Assembly (NCBI RefSeq): GCF_003334785.1
Contig: NZ_QOWV01000014.1
Length of the DNA stretch: 64,000 nt
Source of the DNA: Escherichia coli
GTDB taxonomy: Bacteria > Pseudomonadota > Gammaproteobacteria > Enterobacterales > Enterobacteriaceae
Strand: one strand, 5' to 3'
The notes below the pieces were generated by a model. The model was given only the letters and a program-made list of their open reading frames with translations, was not told where the DNA came from and ran no database searches. Positions 11,981 to 21,375 of this stretch are shown one piece after another (position 1 is the first letter of the stretch; every line of letters starts with the position of its first letter). The position numbers were made by a program, and so were the translations under genes.

Positions 11981-12916
11981 ATGGCACTGCCAATTCTGTT
12001 AGATTGCGACCCAGGTCATGACGACGCTATCGCAATAGTTCTCGCCCTCGCCTCACCAGAGCTTGATGTCAAAGCAATTACGTCTTCCGCCGGAAACCAG
12101 ACACCAGAAAAAACCTTACGCAATGTTCTGCGTATGCTGACCTTGCTTAATCGCACCGATATTCCGGTAGCAGGCGGCGCGGTAAAACCGTTAATGCGTG
12201 AGTTGATTATCGCGGACAATGTGCACGGCGAAAGCGGTCTCGACGGCCCGGCATTACCGGAACCGACATTCGCACCGCAAAACTGTACGGCGGTAGAGCT
12301 GATGGCGAAAACGCTGCGTGAAAGTGCGGAACCTGTCACCATTGTGTCTACCGGACCGCAAACTAACGTTGCCTTGCTGCTCAATAGCCATCCGGAACTG
12401 CATAGCAAAATTGCCCGTATCGTGATTATGGGTGGCGCTATGGGGCTGGGTAACTGGACGCCTGCGGCTGAATTTAATATTTACGTTGACCCGGAAGCGG
12501 CAGAAATTGTCTTCCAGTCAGGGATCCCGGTGGTGATGGCCGGTCTGGATGTTACTCATAAAGCACAAATCCACGTTGAAGACACCGAGCGTTTCCGCGC
12601 GATTGGTAACCCTGTTTCAACCATTGTTGCCGAACTGCTGGATTTCTTCCTCGAATATCATAAAGACGAAAAATGGGGCTTTGTCGGCGCACCACTGCAT
12701 GACCCATGCACCATCGCCTGGCTGTTGAAACCGGAGTTATTTACCTCTGTTGAGCGCTGGGTTGGCGTGGAAACACAGGGGAAATATACCCAGGGTATGA
12801 CGGTTGTTGATTATTATTATCTGACAGGCAATAAACCGAATGCCACCGTAATGGTCGATGTTGATCGTCAGGGCTTTGTTGATTTACTGGCTGATCGTCT
12901 GAAATTTTACGCTTAA
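11981..12916 (+). CDS. rihA: Pyrimidine-specific ribonucleoside hydrolase
   Basis: Start at ATG 11981 ([18 protein letters not shown], the nucleoside hydrolase DxDxxxDD motif), preceded by AGGAG; 311 aa. Confidence 0.85.
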
Positions 12917-12925
12917 CACACGTCA

Positions 12926-12985
12926 TTGATTAAGATCACCACGCGTTACCTGGGTGGTCTTAATCTGTTTATCTCTTTTTCTTTC
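12926..12985 (+). terminator. Candidate intrinsic terminator after rihA
   Basis: Inverted repeat GATTAAGATCACC / GGTGGTCTTAATC followed by a T-rich tract. Confidence 0.5.
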
Positions 12986-12999
12986 AAGATATAAATGCA

Positions 13000-14670
13000 A
13001 TGGATAATGCAGAACTCGCCATTGGTATCGATCTCGGTACTACCAATAGTTTAATTGCCGTCTGGAAAGACGGTGCCGCGCAATTAATTCCAAATAAGTT
13101 CGGTGAATATTTAACACCATCCATAATTAGCATGGATGAAAATAATCATATTTTAGTCGGAAAACCGGCTGTATCACGGCGTACTTCGCATCCGGATAAA
13201 ACGGCAGCGTTATTTAAACGTGCAATGGGCAGTAATACCAACTGGCGGTTAGGCAGCGACACATTTAACGCGCCAGAACTGTCCTCTTTGGTATTACGCT
13301 CATTAAAAGAAGATGCCGAAGAATTTCTGCAACGTCCGATTAAAGATGTGGTGATCTCCGTTCCGGCTTATTTCAGCGATGAACAACGCAAGCATACCCG
13401 TTTAGCAGCGGAGTTAGCCGGGTTAAATGCGGTACGCTTAATTAATGAACCCACAGCAGCTGCGATGGCGTATGGCCTGCATACCCAACAAAATACCCGT
13501 TCGCTGGTGTTTGATCTCGGTGGCGGCACGTTTGACGTTACGGTGCTTGAGTACGCCACGCCGGTGATTGAAGTTCACGCCTCCGCTGGCGACAACTTTC
13601 TTGGTGGCGAAGATTTTACCCATATGCTGGTCGATGAGGTTTTAAAACGCGCGGATGTCGCCAGGACCACGCTTAACGAGAGTGAACTGGCAGCCTTGTA
13701 CGCCTGTGTGGAAGCGGCAAAATGTAGCAATCAATCGCCATTGCACATTCGCTGGCAGTATCAGGAAGAAACGCGGGAATGCGAATTTTACGAGAACGAA
13801 CTGGAAGATTTGTGGTTGCCGCTGCTCAATCGCTTGCGAGTGCCGATTGAACAGGCGTTGCGCGATGCGCGTCTGAAGCCGAGTCAAATCGACAGTCTGG
13901 TGCTGGTTGGCGGCGCGTCACAAATGCCGCTGGTGCAGCGAATCGCCGTGCGTCTGTTTGGCAAATTACCGTATCAAAGTTACGATCCGAGCACCATTGT
14001 CGCGCTGGGCGCAGCAATCCAGGCCGCCTGCCGCTTACGCAGTGAAGATATTGAAGAGGTAATCCTCACTGATATTTGCCCTTACTCGTTGGGCGTTGAA
14101 GTTAACCGCCAGGGCGTTTCCGGCATTTTCTCGCCGATTATTGAACGAAACACCACTGTGCCCGTGTCGCGTGTAGAAACTTATTCAACCATGCACCCGG
14201 AACAGGATTCAATTACGGTTAACGTCTATCAGGGAGAAAACCACAAAGTTAAAAACAACATTCTGGTGGAATCCTTCGATGTGCCGTTGAAGAAAACCGG
14301 GGCTTATCAGTCGATTGATATTCGCTTTAGTTATGATATCAACGGGTTGCTTGAAGTTGACGTGCTTCTGGAAGACGGCAGCGTTAAGTCCAGAGTGATT
14401 AACCACAGCCCGGTAACATTGAGCGCGCAGCAGATTGAAGAGAGTCGGACGCGGTTATCCGCATTGAAAATTTATCCGCGCGATATGCTCATCAATCGCA
14501 CCTTTAAAGCCAAACTGGAAGAGTTGTGGGCGCGGGCGCTGGGTGACGAGCGAGAAGAGATCGGCCGGGTGATCACCGATTTTGATGCGGCGTTGCAGTC
14601 AAACGATATGGCCCGCGTGGATGAAGTTCGGCGGCGGGCGAGCGATTATTTAGCCATTGAGATCCCATAA
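13000..14670 (+). CDS. hscC: Hsp70-family chaperone Hsc62
   Basis: 556-aa ORF with Hsp70 ATPase signatures (IGIDLGTTNS, DLGGGTFD); shorter than DnaK. Confidence 0.9.
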   Translation: MDNAELAIGIDLGTTNSLIAVWKDGAAQLIPNKFGEYLTPSIISMDENNHILVGKPAVSRRTSHPDKTAALFKRAMGSNTNWRLGSDTFNAPELSSLVLRSLKEDAEEFLQRPIKDVVISVPAYFSDEQRKHTRLAAELAGLNAVRLINEPTAAAMAYGLHTQQNTRSLVFDLGGGTFDVTVLEYATPVIEVHASAGDNFLGGEDFTHMLVDEVLKRADVARTTLNESELAALYACVEAAKCSNQSPLHIRWQYQEETRECEFYENELEDLWLPLLNRLRVPIEQALRDARLKPSQIDSLVLVGGASQMPLVQRIAVRLFGKLPYQSYDPSTIVALGAAIQAACRLRSEDIEEVILTDICPYSLGVEVNRQGVSGIFSPIIERNTTVPVSRVETYSTMHPEQDSITVNVYQGENHKVKNNILVESFDVPLKKTGAYQSIDIRFSYDINGLLEVDVLLEDGSVKSRVINHSPVTLSAQQIEESRTRLSALKIYPRDMLINRTFKAKLEELWARALGDEREEIGRVITDFDAALQSNDMARVDEVRRRASDYLAIEIP

Positions 14671-14673
14671 ACA

Positions 14674-14716
14674 CGGCTGCCGGATGCGGCGTAAACGCTG
14701 CATCCGGCATCGGCGC
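14674..14716. repeat. REP-type palindrome between the convergent hscC and djlC
   Basis: GCTGCCGGATGCGGCGTAAACGCTGCATCCGGCATCGGCG. Confidence 0.55.
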
Positions 14717-14729
14717 AAAAAACACATCG

Positions 14730-16181
14730 TCAGCTAAACAACATCGCGATTTTGCCGAGAGCATAACCTATCACCAGCACCGTTAAACTGATTTTGATAA
14801 TGCTGGTAATGCTCTGTGGTTTTTCACCCTCATCATTTTTTTCTTCATGATTTTCAGGTGTTGGCTCATCGACATCTTCATCCTCCGGCTCGAGTTTCAC
14901 TTTCGTCAAAAGCATCCGGGTGACAATGGCCTCTAATGGATGAGCATCTCCGCCTTCCAGCCTTGTATTAAGACGGGCCAGCATCTCTTGTTTCGGAAAC
15001 GCTTCAAGTACTACCTGTTCCGCTACCCGATACAAATCCAGGAACGGTGAATCTTGCTCTGTCTCGCTACCGACTCTCGATTTCCACCACGCCCATGCTT
15101 TGCGCTTGAAGAATAACGACTCAATAAACGATTGACCTAACGGCGATAATTTTCCGCTATGTAAAATCTCCGCCCATAACAGCCGCGTCCGGGCGCTCTC
15201 ACCAGGAACATATTTCAGCGGTTGACCTTGCGCATCTACCATGCTCCGCGCTTCGATAACCATCACTAATAACGCGAAATAATCCGGGCAATGACGCTTG
15301 CTCCACTGCAACAACAAATTATCAGCTTGTGTAGATGGGTAACTTTCCCAGTACGCGCAGAGATCGGCAAGCAGGCTTTCCCCCTCGCCGCAGTACAAAC
15401 GTTGTGCACACAAGTAATACCGGGCATCTTCGCTTTCTGGTTCTTCCGTTTGCCACTGTTGAGCGACAGGAATGAGTTCCGCCATACCTGTTTGCACCGA
15501 GCTGTACCAGCGCAACAGTTTGCGATGTAACTTTGCATCATCAGGAATTAACCACGGACCTTCCATCGCCAAAAACGCAGTGACATAGTCAGGATGGTAA
15601 CGGCAGCAACGTTCCAGCGCGAAGTAATACTCAACAGTCTGGTTCTGCAACGCAATGGGATATTCCAGAAGGCTAAGGAAATCGAAACAATCACCAGCCT
15701 GAATGGCCTCAAGAAAAGCCTCCCTTTCTTCCTCATCCATTCCTTCGCTGTCATTAAATGAATGCCAGTTCAAACGCTCTGCCAGCAAAGAAGCACAATT
15801 TAATGAAAGATATCGCGCTTCTATGGCGATTGCACACAGCGGCCAGCGTAATTGATCGACATCCTCCATGTTCCAGGTATTTAATTGCTGAATAAATTTC
15901 TGCCAGGCGGAAGGCTGAAAACGATCACTTTCTGAATCCAGTAATGTCCTGAATGCACGTAGTATTTCATGTTCAGCGGCAGCATCTTTTTCTTCATCAT
16001 CTGCTTCCTCGACAGGATTTACCGCCAGTCGCAGGGCCTCTTCATAGGCCTGGCGTAATGCTTTAAACCCTTGCGGATCGGTTTCGGGATGACACAACGG
16101 TAAGCGAGCAAGATAAGCCTGGCGGATAATGTCTATTTGCGTCGTGCTTTCAATTTCGAGGATTTGCCAACATGTTTTCAT
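14730..16181 (-). CDS. djlC: Tail-anchored J-domain co-chaperone (Hsc56)
   Basis: 483-aa ORF with an N-terminal J-like domain (ILEIE...[21 protein letters not shown]) and a hydrophobic C-terminal segment; paralog of the djlB ORF. Confidence 0.85.
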
Positions 16182-16885
16182 AGGTCGCTCACATCCTTAA
16201 GCGTTACCGGGCATTCAGACTGGACAGTTAATGGCTGCCAGGGAAGCGTGGCATAGAAACGATCGCTTCCCGCTGCCAGCTCTTCGAACATACGACTCCC
16301 GGCGCTATCGTATTTGTACAGGGTTAGCGCCTCGCGTAGCGAAGTGTTGTCTTCGCACTGAGAAGATTGCCAGTAGAGACGTCCTAACGAATAGGCGGAA
16401 AAATAGTGCATCCAGCTGTGATAGTAATGGTGAGCTCGTACATAGACGCGCGATTGCAGCCATAAACTCTCTTCTTCCGTCAGCCACTTGTTGAGCACAC
16501 CGACCCGTGACAGAAACCCCATTCGAACATAATCCCAGGCTTTGATTCCCCCTTCCCCACAGCACATAGCGGTTTGGGCAACGAATTGGGTATAAATCAA
16601 CCCTCTCTCCGAGCCACCAGCAATTAATGCTTTCCACTCTTCAGGGGAAGAGCGATGCCATGTCAGATATAAGCCAGCTAAATCATTGGCATGACCATCA
16701 TCAGTCATCTGATAAATAGTCTGAATTAAATCATCACGATTATTTATTCCCCAGGATGATGAGAGCTCGAATTCTTTTATCCCAGTATACATTTTTGGCG
16801 AGTCATGCGCGGGTTTGCAACCCTGATTAAGTATTTCCATGGGCGCAGAAAGCGCAAAAAGAAGATATTGTTCTTCCTTATTCAT
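16178..16885 (-). CDS. ybeU: DUF1266-family protein
   Basis: 235-aa ORF, paralogous to the ybeR ORF with a shared [20 protein letters not shown] block; ATGA overlap with djlC. Confidence 0.8.
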
Positions 16886-16986
16886 TTGTTAATAATCCCT
16901 TAAGTGCATTAACTGACTACTTTTTTATTATTGATGAGTATAAACTTGACGCTTTCAAAATAAAAAGAAAATCGAAGCATTCACAC

Positions 16987-17541
16987 ATGAATAAAAAATT
17001 AATGTATATATTCGCAATTTTTATAGTTGCAGCAATTACCTGTATTAGCCAACCCAAGAAAACGACGTTGCGTGATAAAGCCATGGTGAATTATGCCTTT
17101 GATTATTTAAGCTCACCGGGCAGTCTTCCATTCACCACGGCAGCCACGGAGCTTTCCGCGATTCATGGTCACTCAACGTCGCAATATCGCCTTGGAGAAT
17201 TTTATCTTCATGGTAGCGACGGTAAACCACTGGATTATACACAGGCGAGATACTGGTATGAGCAATCAGCGGAACAGGAAAATCCACGCGCGCAAAGTAA
17301 ACTGGGGTGGATCTACCTCAAAGGTCTGGGGGTCAAACCCGACACCCGTAAAGCAATTCTCTGGTATAAGGAAGCAGCTGAACAAGGGTATGCTCATGCT
17401 CAATATACTTTAGGTTTGATCTACAGAAATGGCTCAGGTATTAATGTTAACCATTATGAATCTCAAAAATGGTTAAAACTGGCCGCCAAACAACATTACA
17501 AAAATGCGGAAAGATTACTTGCCGGGCTTCCCGCACATTAA
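16987..17541 (+). CDS. ybeT: Sel1-repeat protein with N-terminal signal peptide
   Basis: 184-aa ORF with a hydrophobic N-terminus and Sel1-like repeats ([16 protein letters not shown]..., [15 protein letters not shown]...). Confidence 0.8.
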
Positions 17542-17550
17542 CGTCGACTG

Positions 17551-18978
17551 TCACCCGAACAGATGGAGTATTTTCCCTATCAAACCAGCAAAGATAAAAA
17601 TATAGAAAATAATTTTAATGATGCCCAGACAGCCTGGCCCACCATCGTCAACGGGCATTGGCTGCGGTTGCGGCTCCGGTTCAACAGTTTGCTTCTCGGT
17701 AAAATTCGCCGCCTGAATTAATAATCGACGAATAATTAATGCTTCCAGTGGACAACGATTTTCTGCATCAAGGCGGCTCACAATCGGCATTAATGATTCT
17801 TCTGTAGGTTGGCAGGCCTGCACTAATTGTTTGGCAACTAGATATAATGGCCATAAGGTATGTTCTGTATCACGCGTGAGTGAGATCCGCGGCTTACGTC
17901 CTTTGTGCAAAACCATCTCGACCAGTGAACGCCCCAGCGCAGAGAGTTTTTCATCGCTGAGTATTTCGTATAAATGAAAACGCGTACGGGCGCTGTCGCC
18001 GGGGACATAAAGTAGCGGTTTTCCCTGATCGTTAACCAGATCACGCGCTTCAATCATCATCACCAGTAATGGGTAATAATCGACCCGATGCTGACGGCAC
18101 CATTGCAACATTAAAGCATCCGCCTGGGTGGAGGGATACTCGCGCCAGTAGTCACAAAGTTCTGCCAACAGGCTTTCGCCTTCTCCACAATAGACGCGTT
18201 GCGCGTATTCATAATAAGGCGCATCTTCATTATCAGGTTCAGTTTCCCGCCATGACTGGGCGTAATCCAGAAGTTCGGGGATATCCAGGCGACCTGCGCT
18301 ATACCAGCGGAGTAAATTTCTGTGCAGTTTTGCATCATCGGGGATAATCACTGCGCGATGTTGCGCTAAATACAATGTCAGCCATTGTGGATGCGATGAC
18401 CAAATCCGAGCGAACATTTGGTAAAAATCGATGGTGTCATTTTGCACGGCAACGGGCAGATGCAGAATGGTCTGGAAGTTAAAAACATTCCCCTTCGCAA
18501 TGGCATATAAAAAGGATTCCAGTTCTTCTTCGTCTATTTCCCCGGTATTTTCCTCCTGTAACCACCGCAATCTTTCTGCTAATAACACCACGCACTCGAA
18601 GGATAAATGGGCAGTGTTCATGGCGATTGTGCACAGCGACCAGCGTAATTCATCAATCTCCTCCATCGAGCAATAATTTAATTGCTGAATGAATCGCTGC
18701 CAGGCGGAGGGCAGAAAACGTTCACTATCAGAGGCAAGTAACGCACGAAAGGCGAGCAGAATTTCATGTTCTGCTACCTCATATTCTTCTGGTTGCCAAA
18801 CAGATTTAGCAGGCGACTGCGCAATCCGTAGCGCCTCCTCATACGCCTGACGAAGTTGTTTAAAACCCTGCGGATCGGTTTCTGGATGAAAGGACGGTAA
18901 CAGCGCCAGATAAGCGCGGCGGATAATATCGACGTCAGTCGTTTCCTCTATATCGAGGATCTTCCAGCAATTTTTCAT
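17551..18978 (-). CDS. djlB: Tail-anchored J-domain co-chaperone
   Basis: 475-aa ORF paralogous to djlC ([38 protein letters not shown]...), with a C-terminal hydrophobic segment. Confidence 0.85.
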
Positions 18979-19682
18979 AGGTCGCTCATATCCTTAAGCG
19001 TTTCCGGGCATGCAGAATAGTAAGCCAATGGTTGCCAGGACAAGGTAGGGTAATACGCATCATCACTGGCAAATAATTGATAAAACATATCATTGCCGGA
19101 ATCGTCGTATTCTTTACGCGCTAAGAATTCGCGTAATAAAGGCAGATGATCATCTTCGGGAGACTGCCAATATTGCCGACCAAAGGTATAACCGGCAAAG
19201 TATTGCCGCCAGTTACTATAATAACGTAGAGCCCGTAGATGAATGCGCGACTGGATCCATAGACTTTCTTCTTCGCTCAACCAGTTATTAAGTACGCCCA
19301 TTCGGCTTAAAAAACCCATCCGGACATAATCCCAGGCTTTGATTCCCCCTTCGCCACAGCATTCGGCGGTGCTGGCGACAAATTGCGCATAAGCCTGACC
19401 TTGCTCATTTAGTTCAGCAAGATAGTCACGCCATTCACATGGCGAATAACGAAACCAGCGGTGATAAAACCCTGCCAACCGAGCGGCATGACCGTTATCG
19501 ATCATTCGGTGAATTGTGCGCAGCAGGTCATCACGGTCATCAATTCCCCATGAGGAAGAAAGGTCAAAAAAGCATGTACCTAAATACATTTTGGGTGATG
19601 AATGCGAAGGTAAACAGCATTCATTGCGTATTTCCATCGGAGTGGAAAGTGCAAACAATATTTTTTGCGACTCCATGTCCAT
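18975..19682 (-). CDS. ybeR: DUF1266-family protein
   Basis: 235-aa ORF paralogous to ybeU; ATGA overlap with djlB. Confidence 0.8.
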
Positions 19683-19845
19683 ATAATTTATCCTTAAATA
19701 TTCATTAAATGAATATTAGCCGCATTGCGAGGCTCGTTTATTTATACTTTTCTGACGCGACATAATACGCATAAAATAAGGCTTACGCAAAAATGGAACA
19801 CATAAAAATATAATATGTTTTATCTGCAACCATAAGGAAATGATA

Positions 19846-20823
19846 ATGATTTTCACGTCAAGTTGCTGCGATAATTTATCAATAGATGAGATTATCGAAC
19901 GTGCTGAAAAAGGCGATTGCGAGGCTCAATATATTGTTGGGTTTTATTATAATCGCGATAGCGCAATTGATTCTCCGGACGACGAAAAAGCCTTTTACTG
20001 GCTGAAGCTGGCCGCTGAGCAAGGTCATTGTGAAGCACAGTATTCCTTAGGGCAAAAGTATACCGAGGATAAAAGCCGTCATAAAGATAATGAGCAAGCC
20101 ATCTTCTGGCTGAAAAAAGCTGCCCTACAAGGCCATACTTTCGCTTCCAACGCCCTTGGCTGGACACTGGATCGTGGAGAAGCCCCCAATTATAAAGAAG
20201 CGGTTGTCTGGTATCAGATAGCCGCGGAGAGCGGAATGTCTTATGCGCAAAATAATCTTGGGTGGATGTACAGAAATGGCAACGGAGTCGCAAAAGACTA
20301 TGCGCTGGCATTTTTCTGGTACAAACAAGCTGCATTACAAGGCCATAGTGACGCGCAAAACAATCTGGCCGATCTTTATGAAGACGGAAAAGGCGTTGCT
20401 CAAAACAAGACACTCGCCGCATTCTGGTATTTGAAAAGCGCACAGCAGGGTAATCGGCACGCCCAGTTTCAAATTGCATGGGATTATAACGCTGGCGAAG
20501 GGGTGGACCAGGACTATAAGCAAGCGATGTACTGGTATCTGAAGGCTGCCGCTCAGGGGAGCGTCGGCGCTTACGTCAACATCGGTTATATGTATAAACA
20601 CGGACAAGGCGTTGAGAAAGATTATCAGGCTGCCTTTGAATGGTTTACGAAAGCCGCTGAATGCAATGACGCCACTGCCTGGTATAACCTGGCCATTATG
20701 TATCACTACGGAGAAGGAAGACCTGTCGATCTCCGACAGGCTCTCGACCTGTATCGTAAAGTTCAGTCATCCGGAACCAGAGATGTCAGTCAGGAAATTC
20801 GTGAGACTGAAGATTTACTGTAG
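19846..20823 (+). CDS. ybeQ: Sel1-repeat protein, apparently cytoplasmic
   Basis: About seven Sel1-like repeats (AQY.LG..Y..G.GV..D); no N-terminal signal peptide. The start is uncertain (ATG at 19840 or 19846). Confidence 0.8.
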   Translation: MIFTSSCCDNLSIDEIIERAEKGDCEAQYIVGFYYNRDSAIDSPDDEKAFYWLKLAAEQGHCEAQYSLGQKYTEDKSRHKDNEQAIFWLKKAALQGHTFASNALGWTLDRGEAPNYKEAVVWYQIAAESGMSYAQNNLGWMYRNGNGVAKDYALAFFWYKQAALQGHSDAQNNLADLYEDGKGVAQNKTLAAFWYLKSAQQGNRHAQFQIAWDYNAGEGVDQDYKQAMYWYLKAAAQGSVGAYVNIGYMYKHGQGVEKDYQAAFEWFTKAAECNDATAWYNLAIMYHYGEGRPVDLRQALDLYRKVQSSGTRDVSQEIRETEDLL

Positions 20824-20833
20824 AGATAAAAAC

Positions 20834-20875
20834 AAGGGCCGGGGAATTTCATTCGGCCCATATTCTCTTTATTGC
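20834..20875 (+). terminator. Candidate intrinsic terminator between the convergent ybeQ and ybeL
   Basis: Hairpin GGGCCG-GGGAATTTCATT-CGGCCC followed by a T-rich tract. Confidence 0.5.
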
Positions 20876-20892
20876 TGTGCGAAATCAGACTA

Positions 20893-21375
20893 TTACGGCT
20901 CAAACGGGCGTCTCTGGAACTGGTCATGACCACATTTCGGGCATAGCGTCAGCACTTCCGGTGTGTAGATCGGGAGATGGAAGTGACATTTCTCGCAGAC
21001 CAGATTTCCCAGCCCGACCACTTCTCCGCTGTGATAAACCCCATGATGATTGAGGTCCTGGAAAACTTCGCGCCATTCAAGCTGCGTTTTATCGGTGATG
21101 TCTGCCAGCTCCTGCCACAAGCTTTCTTTAATCACCCGCATAAAGACGCTGTCAGATTCTTCTTTCAGGCTCTCTTCATAGCTCATGGCGAACTCTTCCA
21201 GGTCACGTCTGACAGCTCGCGTCAGCTCATCGACCTCGGTTCGCGTTAACTCCCCTGTTTTTATTACGCGCTCGCGCGCCTGTTCCACCAGTGCGTCGAT
21301 ATCACGTTCGCCATTGCGCAGGCGTTCGCTCAGTGACGCAACCAGTTCACGGTAATATTGAGCAACCTTGTTCAT
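20893..21375 (-). CDS. ybeL: DUF1451 zinc-ribbon-containing protein
   Basis: 160-aa ORF with C-terminal CxxC...CxxC (CEKCHFH...CPKCGH). Confidence 0.8.
   Translation of the reverse strand: MNKVAQYYRELVASLSERLRNGERDIDALVEQARERVIKTGELTRTEVDELTRAVRRDLEEFAMSYEESLKEESDSVFMRVIKESLWQELADITDKTQLEWREVFQDLNHHGVYHSGEVVGLGNLVCEKCHFHLPIYTPEVLTLCPKCGHDQFQRRPFEP

Follow-up and report, generated by a model that had tools for sequence, protein, structure and literature searches.

The HscC chaperone locus of Escherichia coli and its conserved DUF1266 gene, a possible third component of a membrane-tethered Hsp70 system

Positions 13000-20823 of a 64,000-nucleotide stretch of an Escherichia coli K-12-like chromosome (hereafter the window, to whose positions the E. 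coli gene spans given below refer) hold the already known HscC-DjlB/DjlC system, the third Hsp70 system of E. coli, together with two genes for proteins of the DUF1266 family, ybeU and ybeR, and two genes for Sel1-repeat proteins, ybeT and ybeQ. Comparison of the locus across species revealed a conserved unit composed of a DUF1266 gene, a gene for a J-protein with an HPE motif and hscC, to which the Sel1 genes are lineage-specific additions. The DUF1266 protein as a universal or obligate third component of HscC systems represents a modest new lead, to which the derived character of the E. coli arrangement can be added. On the available evidence, the chances are judged to be about even that the locus encodes a three-part, membrane-tethered HscC machine, made up of the J-protein, the DUF1266 subunit and HscC.

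Background

Of the three Hsp70s in E. coli, HscC is understood least and, more than 20 years after it was described, its clients and purpose are still listed as unknown in reviews. Its pairing with DjlB and DjlC has been known since about 2002, also under the alias Hsc62/Hsc56 (Yoshimune 1998, 2002; Kluck 2002, as cited in PMC8215388 and PMC8957991). As summarised in PMC8215388, DjlC alone among the J-proteins stimulates the ATPase of HscC (citing Kluck 2002), DjlB is presumed to work like DjlC, and DjlC is a tail-anchored protein of the inner membrane, the membrane insertion of which was reported by Peschke 2018. The same review reports Cd2+ sensitivity in hscC mutants and in djlB djlC double mutants, as well as an effect of hscC on UV resistance. 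Furthermore, HPE is described as the sole tolerated variant of the HPD motif and as the hallmark of DjlB and DjlC (PMC13254874).

The locus described here is this same system. The 8 kb from 12900 to 20900 are 100% identical to annotated E. coli chromosomes naming hscC, djlC, ybeU, ybeT, djlB, ybeR and ybeQ, and the HPE J domain and the tail-anchored, HscC-specific J-protein are those of the published pair. A preliminary description of this DNA, made from its letters only, had proposed a specialised, membrane-tethered Hsp70 machine, and this proposal stands. As published, HscC-DjlB/DjlC is a two-component Hsp70/J pair, whereas here the DUF1266 gene emerges as a third gene, conserved to the same degree. 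Full texts searched for DUF1266 yielded just an expression-table listing (PMC7582179), and no publication discussing the function of YbeU, YbeR, YbeT or YbeQ was found in the literature searched; for the searchable literature, it is correct that the roles of the DUF1266 and Sel1 partners are unassigned, as had been suggested.

Conservation of the DUF1266-J-HscC unit

An alignment of the YbeU subfamily was compared with one representative genome per species, which yielded 74 loci from Escherichia, Klebsiella, Leminorella, Rahnella, Pragia, Erwinia, Pectobacterium, Limnobaculum, Gilliamella, Pseudomonas, Marinobacter and Bowmanella, and all open reading frames (ORFs) of these loci were scored against the E. 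coli proteins. Seventy of the 74 were informative, those left out being contig ends, one contaminant and a distant Bdellovibrio homologue. A DjlB/C-like gene lies directly after the DUF1266 gene in each of the informative loci (70/70), and an HscC-like Hsp70 is found in 69/70, usually as the next gene and in convergent orientation in 66 of 68. The HPE motif is carried by 69/70 of the partner J-proteins and, where source gene calls are available and reliable, they show the 4-nt overlap of DUF1266 and J genes seen in E. coli. The same unit is kept by metagenomic relatives whose identity to YbeU is as low as 24-30%. Sel1 genes resembling ybeT or ybeQ were found in 3/74 loci, all from Escherichia, and ybeT is absent from 71/74. 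The linkage across 70 loci and the rarity of the Sel1 genes together identify the DUF1266 protein, the HPE J-protein and HscC as the conserved unit. Co-inheritance across genomes, the lack of which the preliminary description had named as a reason to abandon its proposal, extends over at least 12 gammaproteobacterial genera; the idea of DUF1266 as a dedicated partner is borne out by it, metagenomic relatives included.

A few observations were made on individual loci. In many Pseudomonas genomes (loci L026-L033 and others) the convergent J and hscC genes share 4 nt at their 3' ends, and in two examined Pseudomonas loci (L022 and L037) the unit has a large PAS-GGDEF-EAL gene beside it. Sequences 97-100% identical to ybeU were met at a contig end of Paenibacillus sp. 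USDA918EY and in the Trichuris trichiura AFDB entry A0A077ZGN2, named 'DnaJ like protein subfamily C member 13'; both are almost certainly E. coli contamination.

Domains and paralogy of the E. coli genes

The hscC gene (13000-14670, plus strand), recognised from its ORF and its 100% identity to annotated hscC, encodes an Hsp70 of 556 amino acids (aa) and is convergent with djlC (14730-16181, minus strand), the product of which, a J-protein of 483 aa, combines a J domain of the HPE type with a TPR-like helical domain in the middle and a tail anchor at the C-terminus. The DUF1266 gene ybeU (16178-16885, minus strand, 235 aa) shares with djlC an ATGA start/stop overlap at 16178-16181. The second module repeats this arrangement with djlB (17551-18978, minus strand), encoding a DjlC paralogue of 475 aa with HPE motif and tail anchor, and ybeR (18975-19682, minus strand), encoding a YbeU paralogue of 235 aa, which overlap by ATGA at 18975-18978. 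The gene content, coordinates, overlaps, divergent Sel1 genes and AT-rich spacers reported in the preliminary description were all recovered from the ORFs and the sequence.

HscC matches the DnaK and HscA models of NCBIfam at E values of about 1e-113 to 1e-115, yet it scores far under their cut-offs; the hscC product belongs to the HscC subfamily of Hsp70s and differs from both DnaK and HscA. YbeU matches the Pfam family DUF1266 (PF06889) with an E value of 4.7e-45, over model positions 2-175 of 175. The match of DjlC to Pfam DnaJ is weak (E 0.036); the HPE variant of the HPD motif is present in the J domains of both DjlC and DjlB, DjlC homologues carry the new Pfam family PF27158 'DjlB_C_2nd', and hydropathy places C-terminal hydrophobic anchors at residues 457-483 of DjlC and 446-475 of DjlB.

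The two modules are about 66-67% identical in DNA. The claim that the paralogue pairs are related at protein level applies, far beyond chance, to DjlC and DjlB (49% identity over their full length, E 6e-156) and to YbeU and YbeR (59% identity, E 1e-104); for YbeT and YbeQ, it has to be reduced to a likeness confined to the repeats (36% similarity). An E. coli entry of AFDB (A0A2X3M2D5, 627 aa), named 'Hsc56 co-chaperone of HscC', corresponds to YbeU in its residues 1-235 and is apparently a fused YbeU-DjlC gene call.

Predicted structures and a possible mechanism

From a 55-sequence alignment, YbeU was modelled with high confidence as a compact all-helical domain (pLDDT 93.2, pTM 0.91), a predicted fold with no solved relative. 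A fusion of 695 residues, YbeU-(GGGGS)6-DjlC(1-430), was modelled with a genome-paired alignment and reached pLDDT 85.7 and pTM 0.79; disorder is limited to the linker and one acidic loop, and the middle domain of DjlC is TPR-like. According to our own estimate from the definition of pTM, a value of about 0.6 would be expected if YbeU were unplaced against a rigid DjlC. Since the fusion exceeds this value, the network appears to place YbeU relative to DjlC with moderate confidence, which suggests that the two proteins may form a defined complex.

In the three-part machine considered here, the C-terminus of DjlC or DjlB would be anchored in the inner membrane, with the HPE J domain and the TPR-like helical scaffold facing the cytoplasm. 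YbeU or YbeR, made by translational coupling from the mRNA of the J gene, would sit on this scaffold as a constitutive subunit, forming or gating a platform for client recognition, while the J domain would recruit HscC and trigger its ATPase, so that HscC could clamp clients at the membrane. The physical complex of YbeU with DjlC, the role of the DUF1266 protein as adaptor or regulator and the membrane-proximal location of the clients are thus putative elements of the model. A broader version, in which DUF1266 proteins of the YbeU/YbeR class are the obligate third subunit of all HscC-type machines, attach at the inner membrane to the TPR-like domain of the J-protein and set the targets of HscC, is possible, with the odds leaning slightly against it. 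If it were true, the ligand of the DUF1266 protein would reveal the physiological role of HscC, which could be stress sensing or membrane-protein quality control and, less likely, action against invaders.

J domains placed at a membrane or on a TPR-type scaffold are found likewise in the DjlA-DnaK pair and in the J+TPR proteins DNAJC7 and DNAJC3 (the 'DnaJ-TPR' class, PMC10410713), and in these proteins as in DjlB and DjlC the arrangement localises Hsp70 action. In case DUF1266 is a constitutive partner, the question of HscC gains a concrete handle, with one more protein to study, and the DUF1266 genes of the YbeU subclass could be named in annotation as components of the HscC system.

Points against the three-part machine

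Several observations weigh against the three-part machine. Adjacency alone cannot tell an adaptor from a client or a regulator, and in Leminorella the DUF1266-J pair occurs without HscC within 10 kb. The pTM is the sole measure behind the predicted YbeU-DjlC interface, and packing may be biased by the tethered fusion. During exponential growth of E. coli, the levels of HscC, DjlB and DjlC are too low for detection by proteomics (PMC8215388). Moreover, about 18% of E. coli genomes are without the island, and partial deletions or insertion sequences (IS) are frequent in module 2, which implies that any function is dispensable or conditional.

Furthermore, DUF1266 is not intrinsically an Hsp70 partner, as the wider family carries extracellular or cell-wall domains or TPRs. 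Among 40 multidomain DUF1266 proteins, eight are fused to Cu_amine_oxidN1, three to SLH and four to five to TPR repeats, and the distant fusions imply that the domain is also used outside the cytoplasm. A core motif (GGIxAWDxxR, GH, SW, GR..W) is common to the whole family; an N-terminal ALSAP and a C-terminal KPxSL motif are specific to the YbeU subfamily. The fusions and the shared core motif point to DUF1266 as a general binding-type module, one subfamily of which was recruited to the HscC system. Other distant fusions join DUF1266 to LRR_5 or Peptidase_M54, and one examined multidomain locus (L011) has no Hsp70 or J neighbours.

Partner or client of HscC

The linkage of DUF1266, J-protein and HscC would be the same if YbeU and YbeR were dedicated clients, held at the membrane by the J-protein and remodelled or released by HscC, with the switched DUF1266 protein as the output. 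Specialised bacterial Hsp70s with a single client are known, the example being HscA-HscB-IscU (reviewed in PMC8215388), and the subfamily-specific ALSAP at the N-terminus and KP-x-SL near the C-terminus could be chaperone-binding elements. As HscC-binding elements, however, these motifs are only candidates, and the conserved tail of YbeU is acidic or neutral, whereas the peptide preference of HscC is dominated by positive charge (PMC8215388). A stable helical domain (pLDDT 93) translationally coupled to the J-protein suits a subunit at least as well as a client. On balance, the client role is considered unlikely.

The comparison with HscA-HscB-IscU is instructive on both sides. As in the HscC system, a specialised Hsp70 works there with a single J-protein of its own and with a small third protein linked to it in the genome, and reviews regard neither system as dependent on nucleotide exchange factors. 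For IscU, a function and an HscA-binding motif, LPPVK, are known, whereas YbeU and YbeR have neither; HscB is soluble, whereas DjlB and DjlC are membrane-anchored with a TPR-like domain, and their genes are translationally coupled to the DUF1266 gene.

Presence, selection and silencing in E. coli

Island DNA is present in 4449 of 5426 complete E. coli genomes, with at least 80% of the query covered in 3663 of these, and in 965/5426, for example Nissle 1917, rihA abuts ybeL in a clean empty site. Module 1 is near-complete (at least 80% of the query) in 4269 genomes, as against 3713 for module 2. Natural variants include a strain that has lost djlB-ybeR and retains ybeQ as a pseudogene (E. coli Eco-15, locus L001, 7152-7617), and others with IS1, IS3, IS4 or IS5 in djlB/ybeR or djlC/ybeU. 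In the empty site, the rihA-ybeL spacer measures 44 bp (locus L003, 818-861), has its own GCCGGATG..CATCCGGC hairpin and is unrelated to either flank of the island. The island borders show no direct repeats or att-like scars, and do not settle between gain and loss.

Amino acid identity between E. coli and Salmonella was determined for the island and its flanks, and the ratio of non-synonymous to synonymous substitution rates (dN/dS) was computed against three cryptic Escherichia lineages. The flanking proteins GltL, RihA and YbeL are 95%, 92% and 93% identical, and dN/dS is 0.00-0.04 in the flanks, leuS included. HscC follows with 83% identity and dN/dS of 0.02-0.03. Identity falls to 63-64% for YbeU and YbeR (dN/dS 0.06-0.12), to 47-57% for DjlC and DjlB (0.10-0.15) and to 50% for YbeQ (0.09-0.12), while YbeT, with dN/dS of 0.07-0.12, has no Salmonella counterpart. 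The dN/dS values of the DUF1266, J and Sel1 genes are 3-5 times those of HscC and the flanks. Every island gene is under purifying selection, and values of 0.06-0.15 mean that the co-chaperone genes are maintained as coding, being neither pseudogenes nor under gene-wide positive selection.

With regard to regulation, ybeT and ybeU-djlC go up upon SlyA overexpression and are listed in the H-NS regulon (PMC5797941), and in strain 042 the loss of hns raised the expression of a DUF1266 gene about 300-fold (PMC7582179). This derepression, together with the clean empty site, the lower count of module 2, the IS insertions in both modules, the protein levels under the detection limit (PMC8215388) and the 47-64% identity of the co-chaperones between E. 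coli and Salmonella against 92-95% for the flanks, would be accounted for if the E. coli island were a largely cryptic remnant silenced by H-NS, in which the tandem modules and the Sel1 genes are drifting accessory DNA in the course of being lost. Continuing purifying selection, the retention of both modules since before the split of Escherichia and Salmonella, and the Cd2+ and UV phenotypes reported for deletions (PMC8215388) weigh against such a remnant, which is regarded as improbable.

Origin of the E. coli arrangement

Genera other than Escherichia, Salmonella and Klebsiella have a J-protein of about 890-930 aa, in which the HPE J domain is followed by a long helical region and, at the C-terminus, by a multi-pass segment matching DUF805 (YhaH/YhaI-type); examples of the long-form gene are found at 6747-9410 of locus L018 and in loci L037, L040 and L083. 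The E. coli J-proteins of 475-483 aa align to approximately the first 310-350 residues of the long form and continue into their own single tail anchor. The long, DUF805-ended form appears to be ancestral and the short tail-anchored form of E. coli a derived truncation. The ancestral protein of about 900 aa would have been cut down to about 475 aa, ending in one tail anchor, in the lineage of Escherichia, Salmonella and Klebsiella; the DUF1266-J pair would have been duplicated afterwards, before Escherichia and Salmonella separated, and the Sel1-repeat genes, which are not core, would have joined later.

In Salmonella, ybeL is followed by ybeQ, divergent from ybeR'-djlB'-ybeU'-djlC', then by hscC, a 412-aa ORF and rihA, and ybeT is missing. 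Klebsiella spallanzanii has one module and hscC beside ybeL, with no Sel1 gene. According to the identity matrices, E. coli YbeU, YbeR and DjlC are each slightly closer to their positional Salmonella counterpart than to their own paralogue, DjlB being the exception, slightly closer to DjlC than to its Salmonella counterpart. This positional pairing indicates that the duplication of the module predates the Escherichia/Salmonella split. The rihA/ybeL site is common to the island in E. coli, Salmonella and K. spallanzanii, and the shared site in three genera, together with the presence of both modules in Salmonella, makes the island an old resident and the empty site of E. coli more likely a loss. 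Horizontal acquisition followed by duplication, as envisaged in the preliminary description, is in part consistent with the presence or absence of the island as a block, its lower GC content (47.0% vs 50.7% in the remaining window) and the published H-NS/SlyA regulon; a recent import is argued against by the shared chromosomal site. The 412-aa ORF of Salmonella (locus L086, 15082-16320), which lies between hscC and rihA, has no Pfam match on record and is without a counterpart at that place in E. coli.

With its truncated J-protein, its duplicated module and the Sel1 genes it has gained, the locus of E. coli is a derived version of the system. Given this, organisms with the single-copy ancestral form, e.g. 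Pseudomonas or Gilliamella, may be better models.

The hypothesis of a conflict system

A further explanation, also raised in the preliminary description, sees in the module a conflict or anti-phage system, in which a membrane Hsp70 machine with fast-evolving adaptors senses or blocks an invader. In its favour, E. coli genomes carry or lack the island as a block, the promoters are rich in AT and silencing by H-NS has been published, dN/dS for the DUF1266, J and Sel1 proteins is 3-5 times that of HscC and the flanks, and Hsp70-like domains occur in some predicted restriction systems, the CoCoNuTs (PMC11090510). The Hsp70 domains of CoCoNuTs are, however, fused to McrB or McrC and have no J partners, which is a different architecture, and in the module the gene-wide dN/dS stays well below 1.

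Searches for traces of a defence role were negative. HscC, DjlC, DjlB, YbeU and YbeR have no matches in PADLOC (PADLOC-DB 2.0) and none in PHROGs, so that neither YbeU nor DjlC belongs to a PHROG family; the Sel1 proteins gave marginal, partial PADLOC matches to the N-terminus of PtuA (E 1e-4 to 2e-3), and no significant match resulted for any island protein. Co-occurrence with defence islands, a check which had been recommended, was not found, as 0/35 flanking proteins in Pseudomonas, Rahnella, Marinobacter and Pectobacterium had a PADLOC match. The neighbours are ordinary and vary by genus, comprising c-di-GMP enzymes, LysR regulators, glutathione reductase (gor), FecR/TonB, UvrD, SufE and XseA, and the chromosomal position of the unit is fixed across genera.

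Concerning mobile elements, tblastn against phages returned no genuine carriage, just two short unannotated records with ybeU/ybeR-like DNA, OR851168.1 (2.6 kb) and OR845923.1 (1.5 kb), which look like host fragments and not phage genes. Against plasmids, true carriage is restricted to Erwinia persicina megaplasmids, the other matches looking like chromosomal DNA deposited as plasmids. With the database, phage, plasmid and neighbourhood checks all negative and dN/dS at 0.06-0.15, the conflict hypothesis is considered very improbable.

The Sel1-repeat genes

The two Sel1 genes are not equivalent, differing in length and N-terminus. The first, ybeT (16987-17541, plus strand), is an Escherichia-specific insertion between the modules and encodes a 184-aa protein with three Sel1 repeats (Pfam PF08238) and a hydrophobic, signal- or anchor-like segment at residues 2-23, by which YbeT looks exported or membrane-anchored. 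The second, ybeQ (19840-20823, plus strand), encodes a cytoplasmic-type protein of 327 aa with 7-8 repeats, in which hydropathy shows no hydrophobic segment; its Salmonella orthologue has 331 aa and 50% identity (E 5e-102). Neither YbeT nor YbeQ reaches an NCBIfam cut-off.

The preliminary description had counted a Sel1 gene in each repeated unit. Their occurrence in so few loci, the presence of ybeQ without ybeT in Salmonella and the exported look of YbeT remove them from it, and the same observations rule out the Sel1 genes as core adaptors. An origin of the Sel1 genes as a split-off piece of the long-form J-protein was also rejected, since Pfam gave just DnaJ and DUF805 in the long form. 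Among known Sel1-repeat proteins (MotX, AlgK, ExoR, MerG), YbeT shares an export- or anchor-like N-terminus with the periplasmic members; the link of YbeT and YbeQ to an Hsp70 unit is restricted to Escherichia and Salmonella.

Intergenic features

Both Sel1 genes diverge from a DUF1266 gene across an AT-rich control region, of 101 bp and 27.7% GC between ybeU and ybeT (16886-16986) and of 157 bp and 29.3% GC between ybeR and ybeQ (19683-19839). A scan for promoter and terminator consensus sequences was uninformative, with fewer promoter-like sites than in shuffled sequence. A REP-like, G+C-rich hairpin, GCCGGATGC...GCATCCGGC, can be read at 14679-14708 between the convergent hscC and djlC, and a terminator-like hairpin lies 3' of ybeQ (20836-20859, plus strand).

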